From contig JANJWP010000021.1 of assembly GCA_024709505.1 (NCBI GenBank), positions 7,989 through 71,988 on the forward strand: a stretch of 64,000 bases of DNA. Direction: 5' to 3'. Shown in pieces: positions 3,551 through 53,031 of this stretch; the first letter of the stretch is position 1; each line of letters starts with the position of its first letter. The notes under the pieces are model-generated. The model was given only the letters and a program-made list of their open reading frames with translations. It searched no databases and had not been told where the DNA came from. Origin of the DNA: Candidatus Altimarinota bacterium (GTDB lineage Bacteria > Patescibacteriota > Gracilibacteria > BD1-5 > UBA2023). The position numbers were made by a program, and so were the translations under genes.

Positions 3551-3605
3551 GGGAAGGGGGTTTTATTTCTATTCCCCTCGACTCTACACCACTTTTCGTT
3601 CACGC

Positions 3606-3650: not shown

Positions 3651-3666
3651 ATAGAAAGCGGAGAAA

Positions 3667-18157: not shown

Positions 18158-18858
18158 TATTTGCGGATTTCTACTAAATATTCTTTGGCTCCGCGGGAAA
18201 ACGTGAGAAGCGCCGCTTCGACCGGAACGCCGTCGGCCAAGAGGGTTTTTGAGTCCGAAACGCTTTCCACCACGAGGGACGAACGCTCGGCTCCCGATAC
18301 TGAAACCGAACGCAACACGAGCCTGGATTCCTCTGGGGCCAGAACGCTTTCGCGATCGAAGTGCACGAACGCGATTCGGTTTTCCGGCTCGGAGTCGAAA
18401 AAAAACGCCGCAGAATATTCGTCCTTTTTTCCCGTCGCAAAAGAAAACGGGACGGTGGCCGACGCTCCCGAAAGCGATACCGTCCCCACGATCTTATGGT
18501 CTTCGGCGAGACGGATCGCCCATGGTCCCGAATACGGAGCCGAGACCCGGAATTGCCCGGAAGCGGAAGACCAATCGTAAGAAAGGACGCTCCCGGATGC
18601 CGTCGCCGAATGCGCGTCGGAGATGGAAACGTAGCCTATCGAACCGGAAAGGAATTCGGCCCGATACGAGGAGACCGAACGGTCTCGGACCGCCCGGTCG
18701 AGGGATGAAAGTTCCGAAACGATCTTCGTCCGCAAGGATTCCGTCACCGCCCTTTCCGAAAAAATGCGCACGGACATCGCCACCATTCCCGACAAGACCG
18801 CCACGATCGTGGCGGCGACGGCAATCTCAGCAATGGTAAAACCCTTTTTGGAGCGCAT
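18157..18858 (-). CDS. Type IV pilin-like protein (prepilin-type N-terminal domain)
   Basis: MRSKKG/FTIAEIAVAATIVAVLSGMV is a class III signal with Glu at +5. 233 aa, no TGA. The TAA overlaps the fmt ATG by 1 nt. Confidence 0.7.
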   Translation of the reverse strand: MRSKKGFTIAEIAVAATIVAVLSGMVAMSVRIFSERAVTESLRTKIVSELSSLDRAVRDRSVSSYRAEFLSGSIGYVSISDAHSATASGSVLSYDWSSASGQFRVSAPYSGPWAIRLAEDHKIVGTVSLSGASATVPFSFATGKKDEYSAAFFFDSEPENRIAFVHFDRESVLAPEESRLVLRSVSVSGAERSSLVVESVSDSKTLLADGVPVEAALLTFSRGAKEYLVEIRK

Positions 18859-20052: not shown

Positions 20053-20814
20053 TTATTTCGATTTTTCTTCTATTTCGAGCTTTTTTTCTTCCCAATACCG
20101 CAAAAGGGCTTCCCTACGAAAAAACCAAACGTATGCCGAAAAACCGAGAACGAGGGCGAGAAAGGCATAGCCGACGTAGTCGAGAATCATTCGATAGTAC
20201 GAGGCGAACGCGACCGCCAAGGTAACGATCGTCGCAGCCCAAACGATTGAGCCCACGACGTTGTATGCCCAAAACCTTCCAGGAAGCATTCACGCGGAAC
20301 CGGCAATGAACGGAACGAACGCCCGCGACATGTTGTGGAATTTTCCCAAAATAATGAAGGCCGGGCCGTTTTTGGCAATTTGGCGTTCGAGGTATTTGAG
20401 CTCGGTCCTTCCAAGGCCGAAGGCGTCGCCGTATTCCTTGAAAAAACCTTTTCCGTAGCGCTTTCAGAGCGCGTAACCGATGAAATTTCCCAAAATCGCC
20501 CCGAGAGCCGCAACCGCTATGGTTTCAGCAAGGTGTTCCCGCCCAAAAAATCCGCCGACGATGAGCATGACCTGAAGCCCCGGAACGAGGACGCCGATGA
20601 CCGGAAACGACTCGATGACGCTGAAAACGAATGCCAGGAGGTAATTCCAATTCCCCAGCGAGAGCACGAGGGTTTCGGCATATGCCAAAAACGCCGCGAT
20701 CCATTCTTTCTTAAAAAGCACGATGAAAAGGAGCGCGAACGTTATCGCAACGAAGGTTCCGTGCAGGAGACGAGTCAGCGCGACGGTAATTTTCTGGAGG
20801 ATCGGATGTCGCAT
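20053..20814 (-). CDS. DedA/SNARE-associated family membrane protein
   Basis: Joins 20464..20814 and 20053..20289 through TGA at 20466..20464 and 20292..20290. Sequence: ...GNFIGYAL[UGA]KRYGKGFFKEYG...ILGKFHNMSRAFVPFIAGSA[UGA]MLPGRFWAYNVVGSIVW. Confidence 0.8.
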
Positions 20815-20880
20815 GCGCGCTTTGGGTACTTGGGAACGAACGTGGCATACGATACCGAAAAACCCCGTTCGGGCAATAGG

Positions 20881-20907
20881 AAAAACGCTCCGTTACGGAG
20901 CGTTTTT
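20881..20907 (-). terminator. Rho-independent terminator after the 20926..22353 gene
   Basis: AAAAACGCTCCG-tta-CGGAGCGTTTTT, 18 nt beyond the TAA. T-run on the transcribed strand. Confidence 0.65.
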
Positions 20908-20925
20908 CCCAGGTTCGCAATACTT

Positions 20926-22353
20926 TTACGGATTCGTTCCGCTGGGGGGAACGGAGGGCGAAGCCCCCTCCGTTGTCCCAGTACCCTCGGACGAAGGCAA
21001 GCCCGAAGCTCCGCTTCCGAAATCTTGCGCGAGCGCGGAATCTTCGGACGAATGAACGGCTTGGGCCTTTCGGTTAGGACGACGGACGGAATGAATTCTC
21101 GTAAGCGGAACGTTTTCGTCTGGAGAGACGGCCGTTTCGGAAGGGGTTTCGACCGCAGGAAAACCATTTTCCAAGGGGATTTCGATTGGGGCGGCCGGAA
21201 CGTCGGTCGGAACCGATTCGGGGGCGCTCGTTTTTATCGAAGGCGAAACGAAAGCGAAGGTTCCAATCGACAACGCGACAACGGCAACGAGTCACGAAAG
21301 CGAGCGCACGAGGATCTTCCGTTCTCCAAAAAGCTTGGCGAGGCCACCCTTCCGGGTTTCGGAAAGCTCCTTCGCAATCGTTTCGACGTATGCCGGATCA
21401 ACCGAAGGGTTGGAATTGGAAGATTCGGGAAGAACGATTAGTCCATCCGGAGAACCGTCCTGACCAGTAACGACGGTTTCGGGAGGAATTTCTTCGGTTT
21501 CCGGTTCCGCCCCCCCGTCCATGATGGGCTCCAAGGATTCGGAAGGGGTTTCGGAGACGGCTTCGGATGGAAGCTCCGAAACGATTACCGCCTCTGCCGG
21601 AGCCGCTTCTTTTTGCGGGACGATGCCTTCGAAAAGGGGATCCTTAAAGAAGTCGTCTTCCATTTCGAGGTTTGGAAAGAACTCTTTTTTCGATTCGGGA
21701 ATGACTACCGACTGGGCCGCTTCTTCAAGGGCGCGTTTTTTAGCCTCTTCCGGATCTTCGAGCGCCTCGGCAAGAATCTCGTTGGCAATCGTTTCCCCCT
21801 CGGTTCCAATGACCTTGGCCGGCGCGATGATATCGACCCCCTCGACGAATTTCGGCACTTCCGGAATTTCGGAAACCGCTTCGGGAACGGCAGTCGATTC
21901 CGTCGAGGAGGGTTCGACCGGGACCGCTTCGACCACGGATGGGAGGACTTCGGTTTCCGAAGTCTTCGGCTTGCTTTCGAGGCTGATTGCGGGGCGGGAA
22001 GCCGACGGGGATGCGAACACGGGGGCCTGAACTTGAGGCGCCGGTTCCGGAGCGCGTTCGGACGCGGGGGCGGAGGATTTTCCCGTGGTTTTAAGGCTCA
22101 TGAGGGAAATCTTTTTTTGAGCTTGTCCGACCGGCTTCGAAACGGAGGGCTTCGCGACGGAAAAAACCGGCTCGGAAAGACTTTGGACAGGAACGGAAGG
22201 GGTCGGCGTCGAAACCTGGACTTGGATTGCCGGTTCGGGCGCCGGTTCCGGAGCGCGTTCGGACGCGGGGGCGGAAGGACGCATTCCCTCGTTAATCGGA
22301 GCGACCGTGCGGAGGTCGGCAGTTTTGAGCGCGGAAAAATCGATTTTCGGCAT
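20926..22353 (-). CDS. Pro/Ala/Glu-rich low-complexity protein with C-terminal TM segment
   Basis: Joins 21292..22569 (trimmed to MPKIDFSALK, ATG 22353; alternative ATG 22386) and 20926..21273 through TGA 21294..21292. The SAPASERAPEPAP unit is repeated. TM segment: [UGA]LVAVVALSIGTFAFV. No family recognised. Confidence 0.6.
22037..22275 (-). repeat. 38-nt direct repeat within the low-complexity gene
   Basis: ggcgccggttccggagcgcgttcggacgcgggggcgga occurs at 22037..22074 and 22238..22275. It encodes the repeated APASERAPEPAP segment. Confidence 0.8.
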
Positions 22354-22588
22354 CGTCCGTGAGACGTTACGGATAGTCGTTCCCATGCTACCGCACTTTT
22401 TTTGGGGCGTCAAAAAACGGGGGCGCGCAAAATCCACCCCAAGGCCGGGGGAGGAGCGCTTTTCCGGCTTTACTTTCGTTCGTTTCGCGTATAATGCGCG
22501 CGACCTACCGGAAGGAACCGAACCCATCGGTCCCTTTTTTGGTACTTTTAGCCCCGCAAAGCGGGGCATTCATCCCATTTCTGCCCCC

Positions 22589-24391
22589 ATGGCATACCGA
22601 AACATCGCGATCATCGCGCACGTTGACCACGGAAAGACCACCCTCGTCGACGCCCTCCTTAAACAAACCGGGACTTTCCGTGAAAACGAAGCCGTCGATA
22701 CCTGCGTCATGGACTCCAACGACCAGGAAAAAGAGCGTGGGATCACCATCTACGCGAAGAACACCGCCGTTTCCTACAACGGCACCAAAATCAACATCGT
22801 TGACACTCCGGGCCACGCGGACTTCGGTTCCGAAGTCGAACGCGTGCTTCGCATGGTTGACTCGGTCGCCCTCGTCGTCGATGCCTACGAAGGACCGATG
22901 CCGCAGACCAAGTTCGTCCTCAAGAAGTCCTTGGAGCTTGGACTCAAGCCGATCGTCATCATCAATAAGATTGATAAGCCGACCGCCCAACCGGACGCGG
23001 TCGTCGATATGGTTTTCGACCTCTTCGTGCAGCTTGGCGCGACCGACGAACAGCTCGACTTCGCCGTCGTCTATGCCATCGCCCGCGAAGGCATCGCCTT
23101 AAAGTCCCTCAAGGACGAGAAAAAGGACATCTCCCCGCTTTTTGAAACCATTCTCGAAAAGGTCGCCGAAGCTCCGAACGACACCTCCAAGGCGTTCCGC
23201 ATGCAGATCGCGAACCTCGCGTACGACAACTACCTTGGACGCCTCGGTATCGGCCGCGTTTACGAAGGCGTTGCCAAGGTCGGGGCGCAGGTTACCGTCA
23301 TCGGCAACGACGGCGTCCGCCGTACCGGAAAGATCTCCAAGATCTTCACCTCGATGGGCCTCAAGCGCGTCGAAGTCCAGGAAGCGGAAGCCGGCGACAT
23401 CGTTACCATCGCCGGAATCCCGGACATCTACGTCGGCGAAACCGTCTCCACCGCCACCGATGCCGAACCAATGCCGGCCATCCACATCGACGAGCCGACC
23501 CTCGAAATGCAGTTCCTCGTCAACGACTCCCCGTTCGCCGGTAAGGAAGGCAAATTCGTCACCTCCCGCAACATCCGCGAACGCCTCGAGCGCGAAGCCG
23601 AATCCAACGTCGGTCTCAAGATCGACTTCGAAGGTTCCGACGGAAACTCCTACACCGTCGCCGGCCGCGGAGAACTCCACCTCTCGGTCCTCATCGAATC
23701 GATGCGCCGCGAAGGGTTCGAACTCCAGGTGGGTTCGCCGAAGGTCATCTTCCACGTGGAAAACGGCAAGAAGATGGAACCCATCGAAAACGTCATCGTT
23801 TTCGTTCCGGAAGACTGCTCCGGCACCATCATCGAAAAACTCGGAAAGCGCAAGGGCATCATTAAGAACATGTCCACCGAAAACGGCATCACGAACCTCG
23901 AGTTCGAAGTGCCAACCCGCGGTCTTCTCGGTTTCCGGTCGATCTTCACCATCGAAACCAAGGGCGAAGGAATCATGTATTCCTCGTTCTCGCACTACGA
24001 CGAATTCCGCGGAAATATCGAAAAGCGCGACGTCGGATCGATGATCTCCGGATTCCCGGGAACCGCGATGGCCTACTCGCTCTGGAACCTCGAAGAACGA
24101 GGGCCCATCCTCATCGAACCGACGACCGAAGTCTACGAAGGCATGATCATCGGAGAACACCTCAAGGGCGGCGACCTCGTGGTCAACCCGACCAAGAACA
24201 AGCAGCTCACCAACATGCGCGCGTCCGGTGCCGACGAAGCGATCCGTCTCACCCCGATCCGCAAGATGACCCTCGAAGACTGTCTCGACTACATCTCCGA
24301 CGACGAATACGTCGAAGTCACCCCGGTGTCGCTCCGCCTCCGCAAGAAGTTCCTCACCGAAAACGAACGCAAGAAGAATTCGAAGGGATAG
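22589..24391 (+). CDS. typA: Translational GTPase TypA/BipA
   Basis: [60 protein letters not shown]. 600 aa with no TGA. The track's upstream start at 22307 was rejected. Confidence 0.95.
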
Positions 24392-28871: not shown

Positions 28872-29864
28872 CTAATCCCTTAGCAAAAAGAAATTGAAGA
28901 GCGAGTAGCTCACGACAATGAGCAGAAGTCCCGCGAAAATGTATTTGATTGTTCCTTTCGCCTTTTTCAACTTCTCGTCGTCGCCTCACGAAGTCAGCAC
29001 GAGCCACCCGGCATAAATGATAAGCAAAACCGTGACGATGCCCAAAAACCCATTGAGGTAGTTTACGATCGAGGTCATGATGCTCACGGCTCATCCGACG
29101 TTTGGATCTTCGAGTTTGCACACTCCGAAAATGAGCGTGTTCTCGCATCGGACGGTTCCGTAAATGCTCGTTACGAGGGCTTTGGGAATCTTGATGAGGA
29201 GAAATCCCGCAATGCCCACGACGATCGACTTTTTGGCGGATTTGGCTTTTTCCTCGTCGCCTCCGGACGAAACGAGCTTGAAAAACGCGAGGAAGGCGAT
29301 GGCGAGGAAGGCGAAGCTCGCAAGAACTTCCATGAGTGCCACGAACGGATATACGAGCCGGTCGAGAAACACGTCAGCCGTGCGTCCGGTAATGTTTTTA
29401 TCGTAAAGCGTCGAGACGAAAACGAAAGCGCTCTGCATCACCACGATGCCAATGGTCGTCGCGAAAATGGAAGACTTCCATTTCTTGGCGTCATCCTCTC
29501 CGCCCTTCGAAAACAAGAGCCGGAGAACCGAAATGACGAGATAGATGACCGCTATCGCAATGAAGAGGTTTTTTACGTCCCTCGCCACCATGATCACGCC
29601 ATTGAACGCGCCACGCTCACCGGTATTGGAGGCCGTGAAAAAATATCCGGTGAACGGTGAGGCGAACTGGTCGAGATATCCGTTTCGTCCAGCGGCACCG
29701 GATTTTGGAGTCGCCCGCGCATCAAGTTCGCTTGAAGACGAGGAAACCTGGATGATGTCCTCTAGGTCTATGGCCGAAGCGGTTGCCGGAAAAATGGAAA
29801 CGGCCGGAGCGGCAATCGCAAGGAATGCCATCAACTTCGACAGCGATTTGGACAAAAATGACAT
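28872..29864 (-). CDS. Secreted protein made of three fused T4SS-pilin-like (VirB2/TrbC-type, CPR T4SS_pilin-like) modules
   Basis: Track ORF 29091..29864 extended through TGA at 29093..29091 and 28988..28986 to TAG 28874..28872 (330 aa). Signal peptide: MSFLSKSLSKLMAFLAIAAPAVSIFPATASA. There are three copies of hydrophobic helix + S-x-G-G-D/E-D/E-x-K..K-x-I + hydrophobic helix: LLFSKGGEDDAKKWKSSIFATTIGIVVM, FKLVSSGGDEEKAKSAKKSIVVGIAGFLLI, LVLTS[UGA]GDDEKLKKAKGTIKYIFAGLLLIVV. Confidence 0.7.
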
Positions 29865-29940
29865 TTGGAAAACGCGAAAACGGGGCTACTTGCGAGAAAG
29901 TATAGCGAGAGTTGCGGGGATTTCCATCCTTTTCGAGCGG

Positions 29941-32868
29941 CTATCCCTGCATAATGCCGAGCCGAGCTTCGATTTCCATATCGACGTATTCCTTTTTTCG
30001 TCCGTACATTTTCCGGGAGTACTCCTTGATAATTTTCGCACGTTCGGGGTCTTTGTAGGTATTGTCCCAAATGGTCTTCATGTCGAACGGACGGGTCGTC
30101 GCGTTGTCGATGTTGAGCTTGCAGTAGGTCGTGAAATTGGCAATGCCGATAATGTCCTGTTGCGAAAGGAGCGGGGCGTATTCCTTCTCCAAGTATTCCG
30201 CGTCTTCCGCGCCGACCTTGAAACTCATGATGGTGCCCGCGTTGCCGAAGACCGCGTCCTTGATGGACGGCTTTCCGTCTTTCGACTTGTTTCCGCCGAT
30301 CTGCGCGATGAACTGGTGCGCCATGATGAGCGCCAAGTGGTATTTGCGGGCTTCCGAGAGGATTTCGCCGAAGGTATCGGTCGCAAAGTTCTGGAATTCG
30401 TCAACGTAGAGGAAGAAATCCTTGCGTTGGTCTTCGGGGGTATCGGCGCGGCTCATGGCCGCCATGTTGATTTTGGAAACGAAGATGAGGCCGAGAAGCT
30501 GGGCGTTGAGGTCGCCGATCATCCCTTTCGAAAGGTTGACCATAAGAACCTTCTGATCGTCCATGACCCGGCGGAGATTGAATGCCGATTTCGGCTGGCC
30601 GATGATGTTGCGGATGGTGGTGTTCGTAATGAACGGGCCGAACTTCGAGGAAAAGTACGGAATCATTTCCTGCTTTTCGCGATCGCCGGTGGAGGCGTAT
30701 TCATGGTCCCAGAAAGCCTTTACGACCGGGTTCTTGACCTTGGATACCTTGTACTTCATGAACGCGTCGTCAACGAAGAGGCGCGGCACGTCGATAAGGG
30801 TTCCGCCTTCGTCTTCGTCGTCCATGAGGGTGAGACAGCCGTTGCGGAAGTAGTGTTGGATGCGCGGGCCGAAAACTTCTTCGTTGAAGATCTTGATGAA
30901 GATGGAAGTCGCATCAAGTGCGGCGCGGTCTTTTTCGATGGCGCGCTGGGCCGGGTCGGTCGAGATGACTTCGAGCATGTTCAGTCCCATGGGACGCTCG
31001 TAATCGGCGGGATCGAAGACGATCATGTCCTTCGCCCGCTCTTTCGGCGTGAAACTGATGATGTCCTCGACCAAGTCTCCGTGCGGATCGATGACGCAGA
31101 GCCCGTCGCCGTTCCAAAGGTCCTGTCGGGCAAGGTAGCCGACGAACACGGACTTACCTCAACCGGATTTACCGATGATGTAGTGGTGGCGTCCGCGGTC
31201 TTTGCGCATGAAATAGATGGGCTTCTTCACGTTGCGGTATTCGTTCCACCCCATGAGTACCGCGTCGGTATAAAGCGGGAAGCCCGCAAGATGGCGCTGC
31301 TTCATTTCGGAGACGGGCATTTTTCCCGCGTCGGCGGGTTTTCCCTTGTTGTCGCCTTCGGTCGCAACCGGAACGACGGTTCCGTCAACCAAGAGGAAAT
31401 TCTTGTTCTCGTCGCGTTTCAAATTGAGGTTCTTATCCACCGCAAGAAGCGATCCGTCCTCGGTAAAAACGTTTCCGTGGGCGTCGCGCTTATAGTCGGA
31501 AAGCACGGTCGGATTCGAGGGGGTCTTGAGATTGTGCGGGGGCGCGAGCATCTTGTACTCGAGCCACTTGATGATGGGCGATCGGTTGTAGTTGATGTCC
31601 GGAAAATGATAGAGCGTCGAGAGTTCGTCCGTTGAAAAAGTGGACACTCCTTGAAGGAAACCCAAAAGACGGAAACGGAAGGCGAAATACCGGATCGGAA
31701 CGAAAAAGAACGCGAACAGGTCTTCGTATTGCGGATTGTCGAGCTTGTTGTTGTATTCGTCGGTAAAAATGCTCGTTCCCCCTATCGTGGTCTGCAAGGC
31801 GATTTCGGCGCTCTCGGGAGTATCAGATCCCACGATGACCCGGATTGACGCGAGGAATCCCGGTTGTCCGGCGGATTCGCCCATCGCCTTGTGCCCCTCT
31901 TGTTCGGCTTGGTTGAAAATTTTGTAGGAGTCCCCCGAAGACGCCCCCGGAGCCATGGAATCGGAGGTTCGTTCATTATTGACGAGCGTGTTGATGAGCC
32001 AGTAGATCGGAGCGAGTACCGATTGAATGGCTGAAAGCCAAAATCCGGCCTTCGCCCTTCCTTTGTACTCCCCCTTCGCCACGAGATTCGCAGCCTTTTT
32101 GGCCTTTTTATTCCACCACGAAGACCGGGGCTTCGCGATGATTTGAAGCACTGCCTTGTCGGTGTGCTTGAGGGTGCCGAAGTTATTGGTGAACGTCGAA
32201 AGCGGATCGTCCTCGAAGTACTTGAAGGTCTTAATCGGATACACGTCGTCGTTTACCTTGGAGATGCTCGCGGCACGAACGGTATATCCGGCAGGCTTGA
32301 GGTTCGGGTATTCGCTTGGACGGATGATCTTCACTTCGGCATCCGGATAGTTCGAAGTGACCTGTTGCGCGATGAAATTCGCCACGCCGGAATAGGTCAC
32401 GACGTAAAACGATATTTGTCCCTGATCGAAAACGAGTTCGAGCGAGGCTTTCATGTGGTCGAAAATCGTATCGAGCACCCAATCCTTGAAGGTGATGTCG
32501 CCGATTTTATGAATCGACTTGAAGAAGATGGACATGATTCCCACCTTTTCTTTGAAATCCTTTTTCGTTTCGCGTTCCTTGTCGAGCTTGGAATCAGCCC
32601 GCGGCAACGTTACGCGCATGTAAACGAGCCTTTTTGCGGCGTAGATTTCGTAGAGGATCCGAACGAGTTTGAGAAGAAAAAAAAGGAGGAGAACGAGCAA
32701 AAGCACGTTCCATACGACGGCGAAAAGATATTCGAGCATCTCCCAAAAGGAGCCTCATTCTTCGGCCGGAACGGTTTTGGAAGCCGTTCCCGAACGCTCG
32801 GTTCCGGCGATGGCGGCATGCGCGACGGGGAGAAAAAATCCCAGAAGCGACGCAAAGGTTTCAGACAT
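29941..32868 (-). CDS. VirD4/TraD-like type IV coupling-protein-family ATPase, paralogue 1 (975 aa)
   Basis: Joins 31159..32739 and 29941..31149 through TGA 31161..31159, which sits in the Walker A loop (IIGKSG[UGA]GKSV). It extends upstream through TGA 32757..32755 to ATG 32868, which has an AAAGGAGAGG Shine-Dalgarno. Features: N-terminal TM helix, VIDPHGDL, Walker B-like FFLYVDEFQNF, ARKYHLALIMAHQFIAQI. Confidence 0.8.
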
Positions 32869-33019
32869 ACCTCTCCTTTGGATTACGGAATCGGGGAAAT
32901 AGTACCACACTCTTGGCGTTCGGGCAAAAAAGGCGGCGCCATTCCCCCTTTACGAACGCCGGGTTTTCGGTATTATCGTTCCCGGTAGCGCGAAAATATT
33001 CTTTTTCCGCGCTTTTTTC

Positions 33020-34525
33020 ATGGTTAAAACCGTATTCTCCTCGTCGATTCGAGGCCTATTTTGACAGCTCGTCCACGTGGAAGTGGACGTTTCTCCGGGA
33101 CTGCCCTCGTTCTCAATCGTCGGACTCGGCGATACGGCGGTCCAAGAAAGCCGCGAACGGGTTCGGACCGCCATTCGAAATTCTGGATTTTCCTTTCCGC
33201 AAAAACGCGTCACGGTCAATTTGGCTCCGGCCGAAATTCGGAAGGCCTGACCGGGATTCGACCTTGCGATCGCCATCGGCATCATTGCCGAAGAATGCGG
33301 ACTGAAAGAAAGCGACCTGAAGGGGATAGCCGTTCTCGGCGAACTCGCGCTCGACGGGACGCTCCGGAACGTTGGCGGAATCGTCGCCCATGCGGCCTCT
33401 CTCGGAGAATATGAAACGTATGGCCTGCTCGCCTCCGAAAGCGACGCGCAAACAGCTTCATTTATTCCGAACGTCATCGCATACGGAGCGAAAACCCTTC
33501 GCGAAGCGGTCGAAGCCCTCCAAAAAAGAAGGGGCGGGAAGGCTGTTGCGAAAAAACGTTCCGAAATCCAGAGCGCCGTCCGGACGTCGGATTTTCCGGA
33601 TTTTTCGGATATCGCGGGACAGGAGCGGGCGAAACGCGCCCTTGAAATTGCCGCCGCGGGAGGACATAACGTGCTTCTTGAATGAGCCCCTTGATCGGGA
33701 AAAACCTTACTTTGCCGGGCATTTCAGGGGATTTTGCCGGAAGTTTCACCGCAAGAACTCATCACCTTAGCGAAAATCCGATCCGTTTCCGGATCATTTT
33801 CCGATCCGTTTTCGCTCGAACGCCCCTTCGTAAGCGTCCATTCCGGGGCGAGCGCGGCCAGCTTGCTTTGATGATGACCGCTCGCCAAGCCCGGAGAAAT
33901 CACCCTCGCACACCTTGGAACGCTTTTTTTGGACGAACTCCGGGAATTTCCACCCTACCTGCTCGACGCCTTGAGGCAACCCCTCGAAGAAGGAAAGGTT
34001 CGGGTTTCGCGGGCGCTCGCGAGCCATTCGTATCCGGCCAGGTTCCAGTTGCTCGCCGCAACGAACCCCTGTCCGTGCGGATACCTCTCCGACCGTGAAA
34101 AACCTTGCACATGCGCACCGGGATCGGTTGAGCGTTACCGAAACCGAATTTCCGGCCCCATTCTGGACCGAATCGACCTCTTCGTCGGCGTACCAAGACT
34201 TTCATCGATCGAAATTGGCAACCAAAAACGGGGGGATGCGTCGGCAAAAATACTTGAGCGCGTCGTTTCTGCCCGATCTATCCAATTCGAACGGTTTTGA
34301 ACGCGCGAAAAAACCAACGCCTCCCTTTTGGGAAAAGAACTCTCCGAAATGAGCATCTCTCCGGAAGCCGAAAAGTCAGCGCTCGAAGCGGTCGATCGCC
34401 TCGGACTCTCCGGTCGGGCATACGACCGGATTCGGAAGGTTTCCCGGACGATTGCCGATTTGGATGGTTCGAAAACCGTCGAAATCGCTCACATGGCCGA
34501 AGCCATGAGTTATCGTGAACGCTAA
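33020..34525 (+). CDS. comM: Mg-chelatase-like ATPase ComM/YifB
   Basis: 501 codons in one frame with 8 in-frame TGA (33062, 33248, 33683, 33692, 33869, 33872, 33875, 34298). Lon-like N-domain ([33 protein letters not shown][UGA][11 protein letters not shown]). Walker A VLLE[UGA]AP[UGA]SGKT. LL[UGA][UGA][UGA][28 protein letters not shown]. The track only shows 33929..34300 and 34328..34525. Confidence 0.9.
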
Positions 34526-36378: not shown

Positions 36379-36745
36379 GGTCCGGTGGGAAAACGCACGA
36401 CTTATACCGCAAAAGTCGCGAAAGTAAATCGGAGATTTCTTGACTTATTGGGCGTTCATGGTTACATATCGGAAGACAGAAACACGCTCCACAATGCGGA
36501 ATTCCCCCCTCGAACGCAATAGGGCATACGCCCTTCTTAAAACCGTAGGACACGCGGTCATTTCGGCGTTCTCAAGCCTCTTCCTCCTCTTGGCACCGCT
36601 CGTCGGAAAACCGAGAAAACCCCTTCCGGAAAACCGTTTCTTCGAAATTCTCGATTTCGTTTTCGTTTCCGGTCCGAGGCATTTTTGGAAACGTCCCACC
36701 GCGATATCGGCGGGACGGAGCCTTTCGACCTTTCTCCACTTCGTT

Positions 36746-37942
36746 TTGGAAAAAGAGCGGCGGTTCGTCGAAAAGAAGGACCCGAAAGCCTTCACGCTCG
36801 TCGAAGTGCTGGTCGCCATCACCGTATTGGCCATCGTTCTCGTTCTCGGACTTCAAGGACTCGGGCAAATCGCCGGATACCGAACCAACGTGAGCGACCG
36901 GGTAGATTTGTGACAGGACCTCTACTACAACGTCGAGCGCCTCGTTTCGATCGTAAAGGACGGCGGCGTCATAGACTACGAGGAATACTGGAACCGGTTC
37001 GCCATGGGCACCGGAACGAATGTCGGAAACCTTTCCTCCGCCAATATCGGCGGAGGATACGCCAACCTTACCGGATTCGGAAACTACGGAGCGGGAGGCA
37101 GCATCGCTCCGGGGGGCGCTTTCTGAGCCGGACAATATCTCTGTCTCAGCGGAAACGGAACGCCAATGGGGACGGGCGGATGTCTTTCGTCGTTCAATTC
37201 GGCAGGAGCCGACATGACGGGAATGCCCCAGCGGTACGGACAGTACGCCTTGCAATTTTTCGATGCCAATGCCAACGCCAACGGCGATTTGGGCGATGAA
37301 AACGGCGATGGCAGATCCACTGGTGACGACGATGACGAAGAGCTTGGCGCCGGACCTGCCGCGTTCGTCCCCGGAGAACCCCTTCGCGAACTCTATCTCA
37401 TCAAGAAGAATTCCGCGGTTCCCGAACGGCTCATCCTCCGGTGGGTCGTCGCCGCCGACCCTAACCGTCCATCCTGAGCGACTTGCGTCGGGAATGCTGA
37501 CGGCTCCGTTACCGGAAGCGGCTGCATCGGACGCGTCGAAATGCTTCGGCTCGTCGGACGCGATTATGGAATCGCGCATTCCGGATCGGTCGCGTCCTCC
37601 TGACGCTTCGACGGAAAAATCGACACGTGGGAATGCCGCGGCGATTTCCATTGCGCCGGAAACGAGAATACCCCCGTGTGATCGGGAAGCTCGTTCAATA
37701 TCGGAACGACCGAGTGGGTAAGCGTCTTTCCCGAAGACATTAACGTCAAGAGCGTTTCGTTTTCGCCATATCCGCACAAGGATTACCGGCTCTCCTGGAA
37801 GGAAAACGATCCTTCGATCCGCATCGCCCCGTATGTCCGAATCGACATGACGCTCGGATTTTCTTGGATCCGAAGGAAAAAATTCAATGCCGGATCCGAT
37901 CCGCAAGCCCATGTCACGACTTCCGTCTCCCTTTCCGATTAG
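36746..37942 (+). CDS. Large type IV pilin-like protein (about 398 aa)
   Basis: One frame from 36440 to TAG 37940..37942 with in-frame TGA at 36911, 37124, 37475, 37601 and 37679. Prepilin motif KKDPKA/FTLVEVLVAITVLAIVLVLG. The nearest in-frame start is TTG 36746 (uncertain). There is an acidic loop DANANANGDLGDENGDGRSTGDDDDEE and several Cys. Confidence 0.6.
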
Positions 37943-37945
37943 CCC

Positions 37946-38866
37946 ATGTCCCGCATTTCCACCGCAATACGATCGAATCGGGAAGGTTTTGCCATCTTCC
38001 TCGCGATGCTCCTGACGGTCCTCATCGTGCTCATGGGAGTCTATCTCATAGACAAGCTCGTTCCGGCGTCGAAAGATGTCAAAGGGGTCGAACACGGAAA
38101 CGTCGCCTATTACAAAGCTGCGAGCGCCGTCGAACTGGCACTTTCGGAGCTTTCGGGCAACAATCCGGGAACCCAGACCGGCAGCAGCGCGGGAAACCTT
38201 TCAGGTTCGGGATATTCGCTTTCCACCGTAGGAAGCGGAACGGTCGTTCCCCGGCCGGGATTCGGCAACAGCGAATATGACGACGATTGGAACGTCATCG
38301 CCATAGGGAGACCGGTGCAAATAAAATTGCCAGATGGATACCGTCCTTCCGATCTCCGGTTGGAGTTCCGCGTTCCCGACCTCAATCGCAACGGACAATC
38401 CGGGGAACAAGGCGGCGGAGAACCATCCGAAGCCCTTTCGGGAACGGTCGCGCAAATCGTGAACTGGAGCATTTCCACCACGGCTGACACTCTCGTTTCC
38501 GCAAGCTCCCAAGTCCTTACCGCAGACCAGATAAACCAGGCGGCACCCCTCTCGCTCTGATCGCTTACGGGCTCGGTTCTCACGAGCACGGGCGCTTCGA
38601 GCGTAACCGATTTCGAGACCGCAAACTGCGGCTCCGGAGCACGTTGCACGGTCAAGCTTTCCCTCGTGCACTCACTCGAGACGCGGGGCGGACAGGCGAT
38701 GCCGTATCTGGAATACCGGCTTTCCTCAGCCGTAGCGACGCCCATCCCCCAACAGTGGACGCGGGTCGTTGCCGAAGGGTATTCCCGAGGATTCAAGCAG
38801 ACGAAAATCCGCAACGTCGAACAAAACACCGTCGGCGAAGCCCTGGATTTCACCGTGTTCCAATAA
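37946..38866 (+). CDS. Minor-pilin/pseudopilin-like protein (306 aa)
   Basis: Joins 37946..38560 and 38666..38866 through TGA 38558..38560. The N-terminus SNREGFAIFLAMLLTVLIVLMGVYL is a PilX/GspK-like hydrophobic N-terminus without Glu5. It starts 4 nt after the preceding pilin gene. Confidence 0.5.
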
Positions 38867-39933: not shown

Positions 39934-40956
39934 CTATGGATTTCTCGGACTTTGAGCATTCGAAGCCTTGTAGATCACCTGCCCGAGGGGATTCATGATC
40001 TTTTTCAAGGAATCGCGCAAAAGCGAATAGTCTTCCAAGATGAAGAGCATGACGACGTGCGATCCGTAGGTGCGCTCAAATTCGTTATAGGCAATCATGG
40101 CCTGCGGAAAAACTTCCCGAGTGTGCCGGATTTCGGAATCAATCGAAGAAACCATGCTCGCCGAGCTGGCCAAGAGCTCTTCCGAAGAACCGCTTTTCGC
40201 AGCCTTGGAAGCATCTTCTGACACCGTTTCCCCTTTCGATTTTTTCCGGGCCTCCTCAGCCTCGATGAATTTCGAAAGCCGGTTTTGGGCATTCGCCTTA
40301 AGGTATTGGAGGTAATGTCGATAATTGCAGTATTCGTACGTGGTTTGATTCAGGAGGTCCTTTTTCATGAAAACGTTGGCCTTCCCTTCGGTGGAAGTTC
40401 GGTTGGCGCAGTTTCTCCGGGAAAGTTCCTGTTTCAAGAGTTTGGTTTGTTCTTCGATCTTTTTCACCGTATTTCCTCCGTCGGCTTTTTCGGCGCGGAC
40501 CGTCTTTAAAAGCTGTTCGTGCGTGCGAATCTTAAAATTGATTTGGGCACAAGCAAAAATGCCGTTCATCCGTTCTTTGTAGGTTTCGCTCGCAAGTTTG
40601 GCGTCGCGACCGAAATCAAACGGACTTCCTGCTCCGTTCGACGCGAGAATTTCTCCAATTCCGGAAACGTCACCCCCAACCCCTTCGACGCCCTTTCGAT
40701 ACTGCTTGTCGGCGGTTGCGGAACCGATTTCCGGATAGGAAAATTCTTTGATGCGGATGATGGAACCGTTATTCGGATTCCATGCCCTCTCGCAAACCTG
40801 TTTGACGCTTTTTTTATAAGCCTCCTCATATGACCATACGACCCCTTCTTCCGCATGGGCCGAAAACGTTGCGAGAGCAAGGGAAGATGCCGTGAAAAAT
40901 CCGGCAGCCATGCCGAACGTTACGATGCGTTTGACGATTGTAGACATTTTCGACAT
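39934..40956 (-). CDS. Secreted helical hypothetical protein (340 aa)
   Basis: Intact ORF. Signal peptide or anchor: IVTFGMAAGFFTASSLALATFSAHA. Mostly helical and Lys/Glu-rich, with four Cys. It starts 2 nt after the stop of VirD4-like paralogue 2. Confidence 0.6.
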   Translation of the reverse strand: MSKMSTIVKRIVTFGMAAGFFTASSLALATFSAHAEEGVVWSYEEAYKKSVKQVCERAWNPNNGSIIRIKEFSYPEIGSATADKQYRKGVEGVGGDVSGIGEILASNGAGSPFDFGRDAKLASETYKERMNGIFACAQINFKIRTHEQLLKTVRAEKADGGNTVKKIEEQTKLLKQELSRRNCANRTSTEGKANVFMKKDLLNQTTYEYCNYRHYLQYLKANAQNRLSKFIEAEEARKKSKGETVSEDASKAAKSGSSEELLASSASMVSSIDSEIRHTREVFPQAMIAYNEFERTYGSHVVMLFILEDYSLLRDSLKKIMNPLGQVIYKASNAQSPRNP

Positions 40957-40958: not shown

Positions 40959-43367
40959 TTAGACAGCACCGATTCGGTAGATGATTTCCTTTTCGACGAA
41001 CTCCCTTTCGCGACCGTACTTGAGACGCGAAAGCTCTTTGTAGGCGGAGGCGAGCTTTTTGTTTCCCTGTTTGAGATAGGGATTATCCGGGGTAATGCTG
41101 AAGGCCGGGGTCGGCTGTCCGTCAACCATGAGCTTCATCACCCCTTTGAACTTATCCATGTTAATGAGGTCACGCTCCGAAAAATTCGGCGCGAACTGTT
41201 TGGCAAGGAACTCCGCATCTTCTGGTCAGACCTTGTAGGAAAGCAGGGTTCCCACGTTGCCGAAGATGGCGTCCTTCAGATTCACGTCGGATTTGGTAAG
41301 CGCATCGGACTTATGGAGTTGTCCAAGATACTGGTGGGCCACGACGAGTCCGAGGCGATACTTACGGGCTTCCGAAAGAATCGATTCGATCGAATCGGTC
41401 ACGTAATTTTGAAATTCGTCGATATAGAGGAAAAAATCCTGTCGTTCGCTTTTGTCGATGGACTGCCGACGCATCGCGGAAACCTGCACCTTCGAGACCA
41501 TCATCATGCCGAGAAGCTTTGAGTTGAAGTCTCAAAGAATTCCTTTGGAAAGGTTGATGAAAAGGATTTTCTTATTCTGCATGACGTCGAACATGTCAAA
41601 CGAACTTTTCGTTTGACCAATGATGTTGCGCATCATCGCGTTAGTAATGAAGCCGCCGAATTTCGCCTGGAAATACGGGATGATTTCGGCTTTTTCTCGG
41701 TCCCCCATCTTGGCATAGGTATAATCCCACCAAGCCTTTACGATGGGATCTTTGAGCGTTCTTCGGCGTTCCTTTTGAAATTCGTCGTCCGTAAAAAGGC
41801 GGACGATGTCGGTGAGTGCGGAACCCGCGGGATAGTCCATGAGGGTAAGCACGCCGTTTCGGAAATAGTCCTGAATGCGCGGACCGAAGATTTCGTTTCC
41901 AAACAGCTTGATCATCATGTTCATCGCGTCCTGCGCGACCATCTGCTTTTCGTCGGGAGTGCTTGCTTCGAGCAAATTCAGCCCCATCGGACGCGAAAGG
42001 TCGGCAGGATCGAAATAGATAACGTCGTCGGCACGTTCGCGAGGAACGAACGGCATGAGGTCGCTCGCGAGGTCGCCGTGCGGATCCATGACGCAAATGC
42101 CGTTTCCGAGAGCGATGTCCTGTCTCGCAAGAACTTGGATAACGCTCGATTTACCCGTACCGGTCTGACCGATGACGTAGAAATGACGGAATCGGTCTTC
42201 GGTTTTGATCCGAATTTCCCGTTTTACGCCACGATAGTTGTTGGAGCCGATGAGAATGCCTTCGGTGGGGATGTTCACCGGGGCTTTTACGATCTTAAAA
42301 TTCTGCCAGCGAATTTCCGGAGAAGTGTCGTATTTGGAATGGGGAAAATGAAACAGCGAAGCGATTTCCTCAATGGAGAGAATCTGTTTTTTCGCAAACC
42401 ATTTGCGGGGAAAGGAGCGGAAGATGTACGAACGGAAAAACGCGTCGGCATCGTGCGCCCTATGGGCCGAAAAACCGTTGTAGGAAGGTCCGGAGAACTG
42501 CGAAAACGCCGCGGCGATATTGTCGAGTTCGGCTTTGGCCAAAACTTTGTCACGAGCCGTAACCACTACTCTAACCACCGTTTCAAATCCGGTCTTTTTG
42601 GCTTTTTCACGAACGAGTTCCTTGCTTTCGGCTGGATGTTCTTTTTCTTGGCCCTCCTTATGGTCGGAAGATTCGAAAAAAACCGATAGGACGGCCGAAA
42701 ATGCCCGAGTAAGAAAATTGCCGTGGTGCGAGTTTATGCGGTCAGCTTTTTTAAACGCTTTGCGCTGCCAATCGTCCGGAACCGAGCGTACAAGAATCTG
42801 GATGGCCGCCGATTCGTCTTGGGCAAGTTTTCCGAGCGCTCCGGTAATGGTGTTGATGGGGTCGGATTCGAGTTTCTGGTGAGTTCTGATGGGAAGGAAT
42901 GGGTGTTCGTGAAGAACCATCTCCGCCCCAGCCGCAACCTTCCGATCGCGAAAAACGTTCGGTTCGGAAACCTCCTCAACTACTGCATCGGGATAAAAAC
43001 CCGTAATCTGTTTTTCAATGAGAATTCGGGCCTTTCTTGGAACCGCTACGAAAAAGAATATTTCGCCGTCTTGCGCGAGGTATTCGAATGACAACGGATC
43101 GGCTCCGAAAAACGTTTCGCGGAATCATCCCTCGGAAAGTCCCTTGAGCGAGGCGAGGAATTGCTCCATGATGCCCGTCCATTCTTTAAAATCCCGCACG
43201 GTTTCTTTGCGATCATCAAGGTCGCTATCCTTTCTTGGAAGGGTTACTCGGAGAAACGCGGTTTCGAGACTCCGACGGAACGACACCTTCGTTTTCCACC
43301 AAAAGGCCGCGTAAGCGGTGAAAACAATGGAGGCGACGGCTATGAAGATCGCGGTTTCTTGAGACAT
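40959..43367 (-). CDS. VirD4/TraD-like type IV coupling-protein-family ATPase, paralogue 2 (802 aa)
   Basis: Joins 43125..43406 (trimmed to MSQETAIF, ATG 43367), 41532..43094, 41226..41507 and 40959..41159 in one frame. TGA at 43127..43125, 41534..41532 and 41228..41226. Walker A VIGQTGTGKSS, VMDPHGDL, FFLYIDEFQNY, ARKYRLGLVVAHQYLGQL. It is colinear with paralogue 1 along its whole length. Confidence 0.8.
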
Positions 43368-43575
43368 CGAGAGTGGATGGTTCGAACTCCCCCCATTGTA
43401 GCCCAATAGTGCGGAAATTCAAAATGTCGGAAGGAGCTTTATCCGGATTCGCAATTTCTGAATTCAACCGGAAAAACCCTGCTTGGATAGGATGACCGGC
43501 TTTGGCGGAGCGGCTTCAAACTCTTGACGGACGCCGTCCAAAAAAGGAGTCGTAGAATGGAATTGTCGAAACACG

Positions 43576-43605
43576 AAAAATCCCCCTCTTGCGAGGGGGA
43601 TTTTT
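43576..43605. terminator. Strong terminator after the S-layer gene
   Basis: AAAAATCCCCCTC-ttgc-GAGGGGGATTTTT, about 40 nt beyond the TAA of 43647..47192. Confidence 0.75.
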
Positions 43606-43646
43606 CTGCCGAATGACAGCCGAACTCTTGGGAATATCGAATCCGA

Positions 43647-46600
43647 TTAGTCGGAGATGATTGCGCCGTCGAGCTTGGTGGTGGTAAGGCGGAGAGCCGT
43701 AACGGAAGCGCCGGAATCGTCGTCAGAGTAGACGATAGCGGAGTCGTTGAGGTTCTCGAGGGATACCTGGACGGATTCGTTACCAGCAACGCCGGAGTCG
43801 AGTCCGATGGAACCCTTGATAACGAAGTAGACGGTCTGACCAGCCGAGATTTCAGCGTCGGTTCCGAGACCGGCAAGAGAGCCGGTAGCGTAGCCGCCGG
43901 AAACGGCGAGGGAGACTGCGCCAGTTCCGCCACCGATCTTTTCGACGGTGAGGGTCGTAGCGCCGGTATTGACGGTCTGAGCGATCTTGAGCTTGAGGTC
44001 GTCAATAACGGTCTTGAGAACTTCGGTGGTAGCTTGCTTGGTATTGGACGTGCTATCTGCGGTGATTGCGAGGATAGCGAGGTTGTTCGTACCAGAGGTA
44101 AGCTTGGTAGCGCGGGAAACGCCGCCGAACGAATCGACGAAGGAAACCGCGGATACGCGTACCGAGGAAACGGCAAACGCCTTGGAGTAGGTGGATCCGT
44201 TCGTAGCAGTAACGGCCTTCTTGGAGGACACGCCTTCTGCATCGGTGACGGTTACGAGTGCTTCGAGGATGGTACCGGTACCTACCTGGTCCTTACCAAT
44301 CTTGTTGGTGATGGCCTTGACGTAGATGGTTTCCGAACCTTCGGCAACTGCGTAGTTGACGTCTTCGAATACGACGGTGGAGGAAGTAACGGTCTTGGAA
44401 GCGATGAGAGAACCATCGGCCTTGTAGAGGGCAACGGAACCTACAGCGTTCGTAACGTTAGAACCAGAGAGGGCGACGGTGATGTCCTTTGCGGTAACGG
44501 CTTCGTTGGTAGCGGTGAGCTTGACTGCACCGACTTCGGAAGAGGTGGTACCAGCGAGAACGGACTTTTCCTTGTCTGCCTTCGCGTCAGCGTTATCCAT
44601 AGCGACGGTGAGAGTACCTACGCCAGTAACGGTGATGGTGCGATCGGAAACGGCGGTTCCGGAGACGGAAACGTCGTCGTTGTCGTAGTCTTCGAGGTCG
44701 AGACCGTTGGATGCAGCGACACGGAGTTGGAGTCCGCTTCCGCTGAGGGTCTGGTCGTCAACGATGGAAACGGTAACGACGAACTTCTGGGTCTGGTTCT
44801 TCGCGATGTCAACCATGATGGAATCGAAGTTTGCCGTGGTGGAAATCGACGATCCTCCTACCTGCTTAACGAGGTTCGCGTCGGAGACGGAATCCTTGTA
44901 AAGCTTGATAGCGGAGATGGAAGTGCTGTTGAAGTTGAGCGAACCCGCTTCCTTCGCAACGCGAACTTCGCGGAGCTTGAGAGCGGAAGCGTCGTTAGCC
45001 TTGATTTCAAAAGCGAGAGCTTCTACGTCCTTGGAACCAACGACCGCGGTCTTGGAAGCCGAGAGCGGGAGTTTGGTAAGGGTAGCGGAAGCGGAAACAG
45101 CTTCGAGAGCCTTCATCGAAAGGGCGGACGGAGTAATGTCCTTAACCTTGTTGTCATCTTCGGTTTCCTGGATGTAGAGACCAGCGGTGGAAGTGGTGCT
45201 GGTATCTCCACCAAGATTGGAGAGCTTCACGTTGAGTTTCGGAGTACCTACGAAGGTAACGTCCTTGGAGTCAGCGCGGATTACGAAGGTCTTGGAGGTT
45301 CCAAGAGCGATCGAGAGGGAGCGGTCGTAGAAGGTCTCGGAAGTGCTGTTACCAGCGGAAGTGAGATCATAAACGGTACCCATCGATTCGTCGTAGAGCT
45401 CTACGTTTTCGAGAAGTTCGGAAACACCGGAACCGGTGGTCGAGTTTTCGATAACGATGTTGGCGGCTGCGATTTCGAGGGCTTTACCCTTGGTGTTGGT
45501 AACGATGATCTTACCAAGGACGATGTCCTTCTTATCCTTGAGGAACTGGGTAGCTTCTGCATCCATATAGGAAACGGCGATTTCGCCGGCCTTAACGGTG
45601 AGGCCCGAGTTCGAGAAGGAAGTACCAGCGGTGCCATTGACGGCAACGCCGATATTGTAGAGGGAACCTACGGCGGTAACGTCGAGCTTGTTGTCGAGAA
45701 CGAGATCGATAGTCTTAGCCGGACCTCCGATAATGTCTGCGCGAACGGAGAACTTGACGTTTCCGCCGTCCTTGATGGATACCGGGGTAGCCATGTTGAA
45801 GGTGACGTACTTGTCAACGGTCTTGGCGGCCGAAGCTACCTTGACGCCGTCTGCATAGAGTTCGAAGTTAGCGAGGTCGGTCTTTTCATCGACGGTGCCT
45901 TCTTCCTTAAGGGTGACGGACGAAACGAGGATGGATTCCTTGTTGGTGGAATCTTCGGAAAGCTTGAACTTTGCGATTTCCACGTTTTTGTCGCCGAGGG
46001 TAACCTGGGCGGGGGATCCATCAGCTTCAACCTTAACCTGACCTGCGGTAACGGCTGCGACCTTGTGGGTAGCGCCAACTACCGGGAAGGTAGCGGAGAT
46101 GGTTTCAGCGGAAGACGCGACTGCTTCAGCGTTGGTGATCTGAAGAGCGAATTCCTGGCTTGCCGCCGCACCGGTTGCAATGGAAGCAACGAGCGTAACG
46201 GTCTGGGTGGTTCCAGCCTTAACGACCATTCCGTTGGTGAGAACGAGGGTGGTCTGCTTGTCGGAGTTGTTGAACGGGTTGGTCTTCACCTTGGAAGCGC
46301 GTCCGTCAGCAGCGAAGACAGCGAGGTCGGAGATGAGGGTTCCGTCACCGAGACCTACCTGCTTAACGACGAGGGAGGAAACGGTGATGTCGGTCGAGCC
46401 TGCGGTGAGGTCGAACGAAGCCACGGAAACACCAGCGGCTCCCTTCGGAAGATTTGCGGCAGCTGCAGTCTTCGCGGAGAGGAATACGCCGAGGGTACCA
46501 GCCTTGGTAACAACGGAAACCGGGGTGTCGGTGGTGGTGTCGGTGGTGGTTCCGGTTCCGAAGAGATCACCGAGGTCGATGTCGTCTTCTTCTTCCATAA

Positions 46601-47192: not shown

Positions 47193-47552
47193 AAGAAAAG
47201 TGAAAGTAAAAAGTATTCGCTTCGATTCGTTTTCTTCTCCGGGTCTGCCGTCCGGTTCGGATGGCGAATCTTGGCGCCTGAAGATTGCTCTCCAGGGAAG
47301 TTAAAGCTTTAACCTCCGTTAGTAGTATGCATACATAACGGGAGGGTTCGAGCAGCCCGAATGGACGGCCCGTCCCCTCCCGTCATGGCGTGCGAAACGT
47401 TGGCGAAGGAAAAAGATGGGTCGGAAGTCCTAATGTGGAAACTTTCCGCGCTTGAAAAATTCTTGGGGAATCCTGCTGCCTTCAAAAGAAGGGCGGCGGG
47501 GTGGGAATGTTAACGAGCGCGAGAAGGCGGATTCCGCCCTTTCGTGGTGCGA

Positions 47553-52977: not shown

Positions 52978-53031
52978 TTCGAAAACGTATTCTTTCAGGA
53001 AAGGAAAACCAAAGAAAAACCAAAGAAAAAC

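Follow-up and report, generated by a model that had tools for sequence, protein, structure and literature searches.

We analysed a 64-kb stretch of contig JANJWP010000021.1 from Candidatus Altimarinota bacterium (the window, whose coordinates are used throughout) and describe the minus-strand gene at 29941..32868, named here T4CP-A after the type IV coupling proteins (T4CPs). When this region was translated with table 11, two minus-strand open reading frames (ORFs) were obtained, 29941..31149 and 31159..32739. When TGA was read as sense, a single frame of 975 codons ran from ATG 32868 to the TAG at 29941..29943, and the two fragments fused inside the Walker A motif into a 975-aa protein, as an initial annotation made from the sequence had claimed. 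The overall architecture is a signal-like peptide, one transmembrane helix, a DUF8128 domain with a predicted VirB4-like fold, a beta insertion of ~85 aa and a T4CP nucleotide-binding domain with an all-alpha insertion. The features of T4CP-A, all on the minus strand, are as follows.

32803..32868 (-): signal-peptide-like N-terminus, aa 1-22 (...VAHA/A), conserved in orthologues and moderately hydrophobic
32755..32757 (-): in-frame UGA at codon 38, within a linker predicted to be disordered; UGA (shown as W in database translations, which translate UGA with code 4 as Trp) in the same column of 14 orthologues
32662..32736 (-): transmembrane helix, aa ~45-70, Kyte-Doolittle >2.3, with K/R residues after it
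31513..32646 (-): DUF8128 domain (PF26449), aa 75-452, from homology to annotated relatives; predicted VirB4-like fold
31270..31524 (-): beta-rich insertion of ~85 aa (aa 449-533), a gap in the paralogue alignment; in the model of an 88%-identical homologue, strands with a predicted local distance difference test score (pLDDT) of 85-94
29944..31269 (-): T4CP nucleotide-binding domain with an all-alpha insertion (~aa 640-760), from Pfam and a structural match
31150..31173 (-): Walker A motif GKSGGGKS, aa 566-573, from a motif scan and the orthologue alignment
31159..31161 (-): in-frame UGA, codon 570, the fifth residue of Walker A, within GKSG[UGA]GKS
30385..30417 (-): Walker B region FFLYVDEFQNF, aa 818-828, with hhhhDE in FFLYVDEF (818-825); D, E, Q and N invariant

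The T4CP-A gene and its coupling-type ATPase half

A search of 5.8 billion proteins with T4CP-A returned 517 matches. The best 120 of these 517 were full-length (~900-1000 aa), 63-89% identical and encoded in Gracilibacteria/Altimarinota genomes, and several of the homologues listed were named type IV secretory system conjugative DNA transfer family protein by NCBI or JGI. T4CP-A is an intact, ordinary member of a catalogued family and an expected core gene of Gracilibacteria, across which it is vertically conserved.

Genetic code 25 (UGA = Gly) applies to T4CP-A, and its UGA codons are ordinary glycine codons of the lineage. Across the whole window, opening TGA alone lengthened the ORFs far more than opening TAA or TAG, and in-frame TGA occurred in 23 of the 31 predicted genes. 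Codon 570 occupies the fourth variable position of GxxxxGK[ST], outside the two invariant glycines; this position is Gly or W in all 120 listed orthologues and Thr in T4CP-B, a paralogue encoded in the same window. In an alignment with the best 120 homologues, W was found at the Walker A columns of G566 (n=15), G569 (n=21), position 570 (n=63) and G571 (n=18). At the DNA level, GKSGGGKS is spelled TGA AAA TCT TGA GGT TGA AAA TCA in the related locus L003, whose invariant glycines are thus TGA-encoded, and Walker A glycines are also TGA-encoded in L002, L004 and the paralogue locus L007. Given that even invariant Walker A glycines are written TGA in orthologues, a UGA at this place in T4CP-A is routine code-25 usage and no special feature. 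The initial annotation had described a P-loop glycine encoded by UGA; a UGA read as Gly does lie in Walker A, but it is not an invariant glycine and its usage is ordinary. The same DNA-level recoding evidence in orthologous loci ruled out a pseudogene broken by two stops. Annotation with code 11 would cut T4CP-A in two at the P-loop.

The C-terminal half of T4CP-A is a VirD4/TrwB-type coupling ATPase. A VirD4/TraD-like ATPase had been proposed for this half, and PF02534, the motifs and the predicted fold all bear it out. When the translation was scanned against coupling-protein families, as the initial annotation had suggested, PF02534 (T4SS-DNA_transf, VirD4/TraG) matched aa 559-896 with 43.8 bits (cutoff 20.1), and two further families fell just below threshold, PF10412 (TrwB_AAD_bind) at 19.1 vs 20.5 and PF12696 (TraG-D_C) at 19.2 vs 22; DUF87 was at threshold (23.3 vs 23.2) and covered the P-loop only. 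The motifs named previously were all located: VIDPHGDL at aa 592-599, FFLYVDEFQNF at 818-828 and ARKYHLALIMAHQ at 840-852. Moreover, the Walker A, Walker B and sensor residues were invariant in 49 sequences spanning both paralogue groups. A sequence search of the Protein Data Bank (PDB) found TrwB only, and DotL and HerA-type proteins were added around the P-loop when a profile was used. As a full-length model we used the AlphaFold2 model of P0001, a homologue 88% identical to T4CP-A (pLDDT 81.3). Its C-terminal half matched TrwB with a target TM-score (TMt) of 0.58-0.64 and a root-mean-square deviation of ~5.5 A over ~420 columns, and Cag-beta with 0.54-0.57; helices 642-759 of the model form the all-alpha insertion.

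Other ATPase families gave little or no match. The VirB4 sequence families (CagE_TrbE_VirB, AAA_10, P-loop_TraG) had no Pfam match to T4CP-A at E up to 1, and hhalign against a Gracilibacteria VirB4 profile aligned the Walker A region only (E 3e-4). FtsK_SpoIIIE, the family expected of an FtsK/HerA translocase, also had no match to T4CP-A. A MADS defence ATPase was considered and rejected: the PADLOC mad8 match of 36 bits reflected generic P-loop similarity, and the 340-aa partner of T4CP-B, the only neighbour scanned, had no PADLOC match.

At the start of the gene, an AAGGAG Shine-Dalgarno sequence precedes ATG 32868; among the other hand-picked ATG starts in the window, 16/17 were without a Shine-Dalgarno match and 1/17 had a weak GGAG. 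This comparison supports the start at ATG 32868 and the earlier remark that it carries a strong Shine-Dalgarno sequence with few others in the window. The AAGGAG exception could reflect special translational control or chance. Recognisable Shine-Dalgarno sequences were almost absent from the window genes as a whole (~18 starts), and C/T-rich stretches were seen before many starts.

Residues 1-22 of T4CP-A are signal-like and not transmembrane-like. The N-termini of orthologues are also signal-peptide-like, e.g. MSEIFESLMGYFLPVAHAAIAG, and close orthologues conserve MSE.F.SL.G.FLPVAHAAIAG, a conservation that supports the signal-peptide-like extension described before. More distant orthologues carry textbook signal peptides (K/R n-region, hydrophobic core, A-x-A), followed after the signal region by a conserved I-x-V-R-x-A-T...E-K motif. 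The segment at aa ~45-70 is the sole one in T4CP-A that is hydrophobic enough for a transmembrane helix. In the P0001 model, a helix spans residues 44-83, and residues 20-41 have pLDDT <50, matching the T4CP-A linker that holds codon 38. Because K/R residues follow the helix, the ATPase side would be cytoplasmic. The likely topology, as read from the sequence, is a signal segment (cleaved or uncleaved), a short external tail, one transmembrane helix and a cytoplasmic remainder, which would give T4CP-A the N-terminal membrane anchor and cytoplasmic ATPase of a coupling protein.

The DUF8128 domain

The initial annotation placed an N-terminal transmembrane region before a ~450-aa domain that it could not assign. 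The transmembrane helix stood, and the domain proved to be a catalogued one, DUF8128, of ~380 aa. PF26449 was assigned to T4CP-A via the annotation of its homologues, not by scoring the hidden Markov model (HMM) on T4CP-A itself; all 240 listed homologues of T4CP-A and T4CP-B carry this family. A DUF8128 profile search returned 3,807 clusters at 50% identity, with the domain N-terminal in every case. These proteins occur in Gracilibacteria, Peribacteria, Peregrinibacteria and Saccharibacteria, and also in Parcubacteria-type groups (Doudna-, Falkow-, Uhr- and Kerfeldbacteria). Some DUF8128 proteins reach 1,270-2,000 aa, with the domain still N-terminal and large C-terminal extensions (P0311, P0341, P0350, P0352, P0364-P0366, P0373, P0377).

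The structure of this domain (aa 75-452) was predicted with AlphaFold2 from a 28-sequence alignment (pLDDT 78.6; predicted TM-score, pTM, 0.78). In a Foldseek search of the model against the PDB, the top 14 matches were all TrwK/VirB4 chains of the R388 type IV secretion system (T4SS), with E values of 2.7e-5 to 8e-3 and a query TM-score (TMq) of 0.37-0.45. The next matches had E >0.04 and were unrelated ferredoxin-like proteins; TrwB, HerA and FtsK were not among the matches. Foldseek gave no aligned ranges for these matches, but since TrwB, HerA and FtsK were unmatched, the similarity presumably lies in the N-terminal half specific to VirB4 rather than in the ATPase fold that these families share. 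Furthermore, the full-length P0001 model was collinear with full-length TrwK/VirB4 (E 2.5e-13, ~1000 aligned columns). The structure prediction that the initial annotation had called for thus points, by Foldseek, to a VirB4-like fold, and the predicted DUF8128 fold resembles VirB4, presumably its N-terminal half. A literature search found neither DUF8128 nor a VirB4-like fold assignment for it, and the prediction of such a fold for DUF8128 is new here.

Gene neighbourhood in the window and in related genomes

The genes nearest to T4CP-A, together with its paralogue, are listed below.

28872..29864 (-): VirB2-like pilin gene, 330 aa, with a signal peptide and three fused T4SS_pilin repeats (PF18895, E 5.6e-15, 3 stretches)
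33020..34525 (+): ComM/YifB (Mg-chelatase-like AAA+), divergent from T4CP-A, from Pfam
39934..40956 (-): 340-aa secreted protein that contains Cys and matches no Pfam family; encoded downstream of T4CP-B as its conserved partner
40959..43367 (-): T4CP-B, an 802-aa paralogue (transmembrane helix, DUF8128 and ATPase) with Walker A GQTGTGKS, from alignment and Pfam
43647..47192 (-): S-layer homology (SLH)-domain protein, 1181 aa, with N-terminal SLH domains, directly upstream of T4CP-B

The triple-pilin gene begins 76 nt downstream of T4CP-A, and the intergenic region holds no terminator-like site and a weak promoter-like site. T4CP-B lies 8 kb from T4CP-A and is 50% identical to it in the ATPase and 27% in DUF8128. 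Its family gave 3300 matches, with Gracilibacteria at ~60% identity and contigs often shared with T4CP-A orthologues. The remaining window genes include BipA, UvrA, Mfd-like, GlyA, RNase Y, rlmH, tRNAs and a sortase.

Neither a Pfam scan of 20 window proteins nor a phmmer search of all window ORFs with the VirB4, PrgI and TraC-like proteins of Gracilibacteria revealed a VirB4, VirB3/PrgI or TraC-like gene. VirB6, VirB11 and relaxase had no family match among the 20 Pfam-scanned proteins, the subset on which they were tested (by Pfam only), and the same scan gave no match to integrase or replication families. The initial annotation had seen no VirB4, VirB6, VirB11 or relaxase gene; this agrees with the searches for VirB4 by Pfam and phmmer and for the rest by Pfam on 20 proteins, but it had missed the downstream pilin gene and the paralogue.

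We compared neighbourhoods by phmmer on the encoding contigs and 80 species-representative loci, among which were 27 non-redundant T4CP-A orthologue loci with downstream DNA. The gene directly downstream of the T4CP-A orthologue was a T4SS_pilin gene, or up to three in a row, in 19/27 loci; in 8/27 loci a SpoIIE-type phosphatase followed downstream, and then a genuine VirB4 (P-loop_TraG/AAA_10). L009 has both arrangements, and in L004 a PrgI (VirB3-like) and a TraC-like gene lie 8 kb away. The Gracilibacteria VirB4 is 74-90% identical across the group, on contigs shared with both T4CP paralogues. In at least 11 loci, the gene after the T4CP-B orthologue encodes a conserved secreted protein of ~300 aa, and the two-paralogue layout of the window is reproduced in L010, L011 and L016. 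Linkage of T4CP-A to a pilin or to SpoIIE-VirB4 is thus invariable in Gracilibacteria (27/27 loci), an observation that is new here. The synteny comparison, which had been proposed with the initial annotation, overturned its picture of a gene isolated from T4SS genes: a pilin is adjacent, a paralogue lies 8 kb off and all 27 loci are linked.

The loci from L031 onward are weaker DUF8128 matches, made up of paralogue-type Gracilibacteria loci and loci of other Patescibacteria classes. With an iterated pilin HMM, no pilin was found beside the DUF8128 genes of these loci except in L052 and L071; this could mean either no linkage or excess divergence. In the related genomes, the pilin genes are of ~300 aa and occur singly or as two or three in tandem. 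The phosphatase between T4CP and VirB4 is a membrane-bound SpoIIE/PP2C-type protein found in one Gracilibacteria subclade (L002 and L004, at 12.9-16.3 kb, and also L009, L014, L015, L024, L026 and L030), and its insertion hints at phospho-regulation of the T4SS.

The pilin genes also bear on another role, in which T4CP-A would not receive substrates but would assemble the pilus as a VirB4-type ATPase, pulling the neighbouring VirB2-like pilins out of the membrane. The predicted VirB4-like N-domain, the collinearity of the full-length model with TrwK and the position of pilin genes as immediate operon partners in 19 loci would all fit, and VirB4 is said, from work by Kerr and Christie in 2010, to dislocate pilin. 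However, a genuine VirB4 (P-loop_TraG/AAA_10, 74-90% identity) coexists with T4CP-A orthologues in related genomes, and the ATPase sequence matches T4CP families and not VirB4 families. We consider pilin extraction improbable.

The ComM side of the locus suggests a motor for competence, in which a T4CP-like ATPase would pull transforming DNA in together with ComEC, ComF and ComM. ComM is the divergent neighbour of T4CP-A not only in the window but also of its orthologue in 15 loci, the window contains ComEC-like and ComF-like genes (identified by eye), T4CPs are FtsK-like DNA translocases, and CedD, an ATPase that imports DNA in archaea, gives a weak NCBIfam match (E 0.002). DNA uptake by a T4SS does exist, in the ComB system of H. 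pylori. Nevertheless, the ComM adjacency is absent from one whole subclade (L003, L005, L019-L023, L025, L027-L029), whereas the pilin or VirB4 linkage is universal, and the CedD match is far under threshold. In addition, competence in Southlakia depends on type IV pili and ComEC, and its t4cp homologue is non-essential (PMC12102498, PMC12857230). A competence motor therefore seems to us about as doubtful as a pilin extractor. Type IV pilin-like (N_methyl motifs), ComEC-like, ComF-like and ComM genes were noted at 36458..38866 (+), 18157..18858 (-), 59831..61300 (-), 52336..53031 (-) and 33020..34525 (+); with these genes present, a competence/type IV pilus toolkit is well represented in the window.

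Judged by its family name and by how Pfam and NCBI annotate it, T4CP-A might be taken for a coupling protein belonging to an integrated conjugative element or a plasmid remnant. Against this, no relaxase, integrase or replication family was found among the 20 Pfam-scanned proteins, the flanks are housekeeping genes (rlmH, tRNAs, BipA, ComM, UvrA, GlyA, RNase Y), and gene order is conserved over many species at 63-89% identity. Two paralogues per genome are apparently the rule for the phylum (~1.96; PMC12102498), and both share contigs in several Gracilibacteria. A mobile origin is therefore highly unlikely. The statement that this is not a canonical conjugation module was borne out by these flanks and by the lack of relaxase and mobile genes in the searches.

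Further observations concern the window as a whole. It has 53% G+C and a strong GNC codon pattern, and GNC periodicity at this G+C content gives long antisense shadow ORFs of >1000 codons when TGA is opened. One of these, at 29545..32988 (+) and of 1147 aa, lies antisense to T4CP-A and was picked by a naive codon-usage caller; it was rejected as a shadow, and retraining on ORFs with protein-like second-position composition restored the real gene. Further shadow ORFs were seen at 479..3670 (+) and 43491..47312 (+), and a simple codon-usage caller chose the wrong strand for several genes. Of all window genes, that of the 1181-aa SLH protein scores highest for codon bias and has zero in-frame UGA; the product is probably a surface or S-layer protein made in abundance. 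The C-terminus of the 340-aa partner of T4CP-B (...AYxEFExTYGxHxxLLFIxDDY...) is well conserved. Three large proteins had no convincing Pfam match: 548..3550 (-) of 1000 aa, 11670..14330 (-) of 886 aa and 54250..55635 (-) of 461 aa; the first of these ends in a Gly-rich tail, GGGGGGGGNNGGPGG... The stop-to-stop frame of BipA (20645..22570) runs ~640 codons upstream through low-complexity, S/G/A/T-rich sequence, and a long P/E/S-rich ORF faces this extension on the opposite strand at 20926..22749. Both are candidate genes only, and either or neither may be real.

Proposed role and relation to known systems

VirD4-like genes that lie distant from virB4 and without a relaxase on Patescibacteria chromosomes have already been published (PMC12102498, PMC12857230). 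Quinonero-Coronel et al. (2025, PMC12102498) count 5,713 VirD4-like T4CPs in 2,918 Patescibacteria genomes (~1.96 per genome), of which only 148 are near virB4, with relaxases almost absent, and suggest that these T4CPs were possibly exapted. They also describe VirB2-like pilins in Patescibacteria and many TrsD proteins with a remote relationship to the N-terminus of VirB4; keyword searches of the paper turned up no mention of T4CPs that bear a VirB4-like N-terminal domain. In Southlakia, a T4SS cluster and its pilin array are essential, and no coupling protein was seen inside the cluster (Wang et al. 2023, PMC10633639). A 2025 review describes a new, pilus-bearing, non-conjugative T4SS of Gram-positive type with essential VirB2-like pilin arrays in Patescibacteria (PMC12857230).

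Given the lack of relaxase or mobile-element genes in the searches and the housekeeping neighbours, T4CP-A reads as a component of a non-conjugative chromosomal T4SS. We propose, with good confidence as to its identity and much less as to the details, that T4CP-A is the membrane-anchored coupling-type ATPase of the chromosomal, relaxase-less T4SS typical of Patescibacteria. Several points weigh against this proposal or parts of it. The NCBIfam T4CP equivalogs scored far under their cutoffs (36.8 vs 250). The VirB4-like fold of DUF8128 is a prediction from structural models only, and over the full length the TM-score against VirB4 is low, at 0.24-0.32. No PDB sequence matched a profile of the N-domain. 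When the DUF8128 profile was compared by hhalign with that of the Gracilibacteria VirB4, the E value was 0.15, and a further comparison with the TraC-like protein of L004 gave nothing; both hhalign comparisons used shallow templates (Neff, the effective number of sequences, 1.85), and such very low template diversity means that these negative results carry little weight. VirB4, VirB3 and VirB6 were not found in the 64 kb (VirB6 was checked only by Pfam on 20 proteins), so membership of a T4SS in the source organism is inferred from relatives. Finally, the Southlakia t4cp homologue was non-essential for epibiotic growth, whereas other T4SS genes were essential (PMC12102498).

If T4CP-A is such a coupling-type ATPase, it would form a membrane-anchored, probably hexameric motor. 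In the R388 machine, VirB4 contacts VirB3/VirB8 and adjacent VirB4 subunits through its N-terminal half. DUF8128 may likewise dock T4CP-A on the inner-membrane platform of the T4SS, where the motor would act with a VirB4 encoded elsewhere. ATP would then drive the feeding or withdrawing of a substrate, possibly pilin, protein or nucleic acid, through the pilus-bearing channel of the adjacent VirB2-like pilins. T4CP-B and its conserved secreted partner would probably serve a different substrate or step.

More tentatively, DUF8128 coupling proteins might be VirB4/VirD4 hybrids, in which a T4CP motor has kept or acquired a VirB4-type docking domain and is inserted in the inner-membrane platform like VirB4. 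The two specialised Gracilibacteria paralogues, one with fused pilins or VirB4 and the other with a secreted ~300-aa protein, might together drive a pilus-based conduit for macromolecule exchange with the host cell. We regard this as a possible extension, well short of probable; if true, it bears on the origin of T4CPs from VirB4-like ancestors. The wider stake is what the VirD4-like ATPases, roughly two to a genome, do in Patescibacteria, where the epibiotic lifestyle of the one species tested requires the T4SS. The VirB4-like DUF8128 prediction and the pilin/SpoIIE-VirB4 linkage are testable handles on how the motor is attached and what its substrates are.

Compared with known systems, T4CP-A shares with VirD4/TrwB/TraD (PF02534, PF10412; TrwB 1E9R) the N-terminal anchor, Walker A and B, and the nucleotide-binding domain with its all-alpha insertion. 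Unlike these proteins, it has two extra segments between anchor and ATPase, the ~380-aa DUF8128 and the ~85-aa beta insertion, and it has a signal-like peptide and one transmembrane helix in place of a two-helix hairpin. The gene is carried on the chromosome, is inherited vertically and exists as a pair of paralogues, with no relaxase or conjugative context found; of the relaxase/relaxosome and mating-pair-formation partners of a coupling protein, no relaxase (Pfam, 20 proteins) or VirB4 was found in the 64 kb. With the Patescibacteria orphan T4CPs (PMC12102498), T4CP-A shares a chromosomal VirD4-like ATPase in about two copies per genome, usually away from virB4 and with no relaxase; T4CP-A orthologues differ from the orphans of that account in that what follows next is always a VirB2-like pilin or SpoIIE-VirB4. 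With VirB4/TrwK (R388, 7O41/8RTD) it shares a predicted layout of an N-terminal alpha/beta domain followed by a C-terminal TrwB-like ATPase, and VirB4/TrwK is the best Foldseek match of the models of both the N-domain alone and the full length. T4CP-A is unlike VirB4/TrwK in its own transmembrane helix, a low global TM-score and no sequence similarity outside Walker A/B, and a genuine, separate VirB4 is present in related genomes alongside the T4CP-A orthologues.

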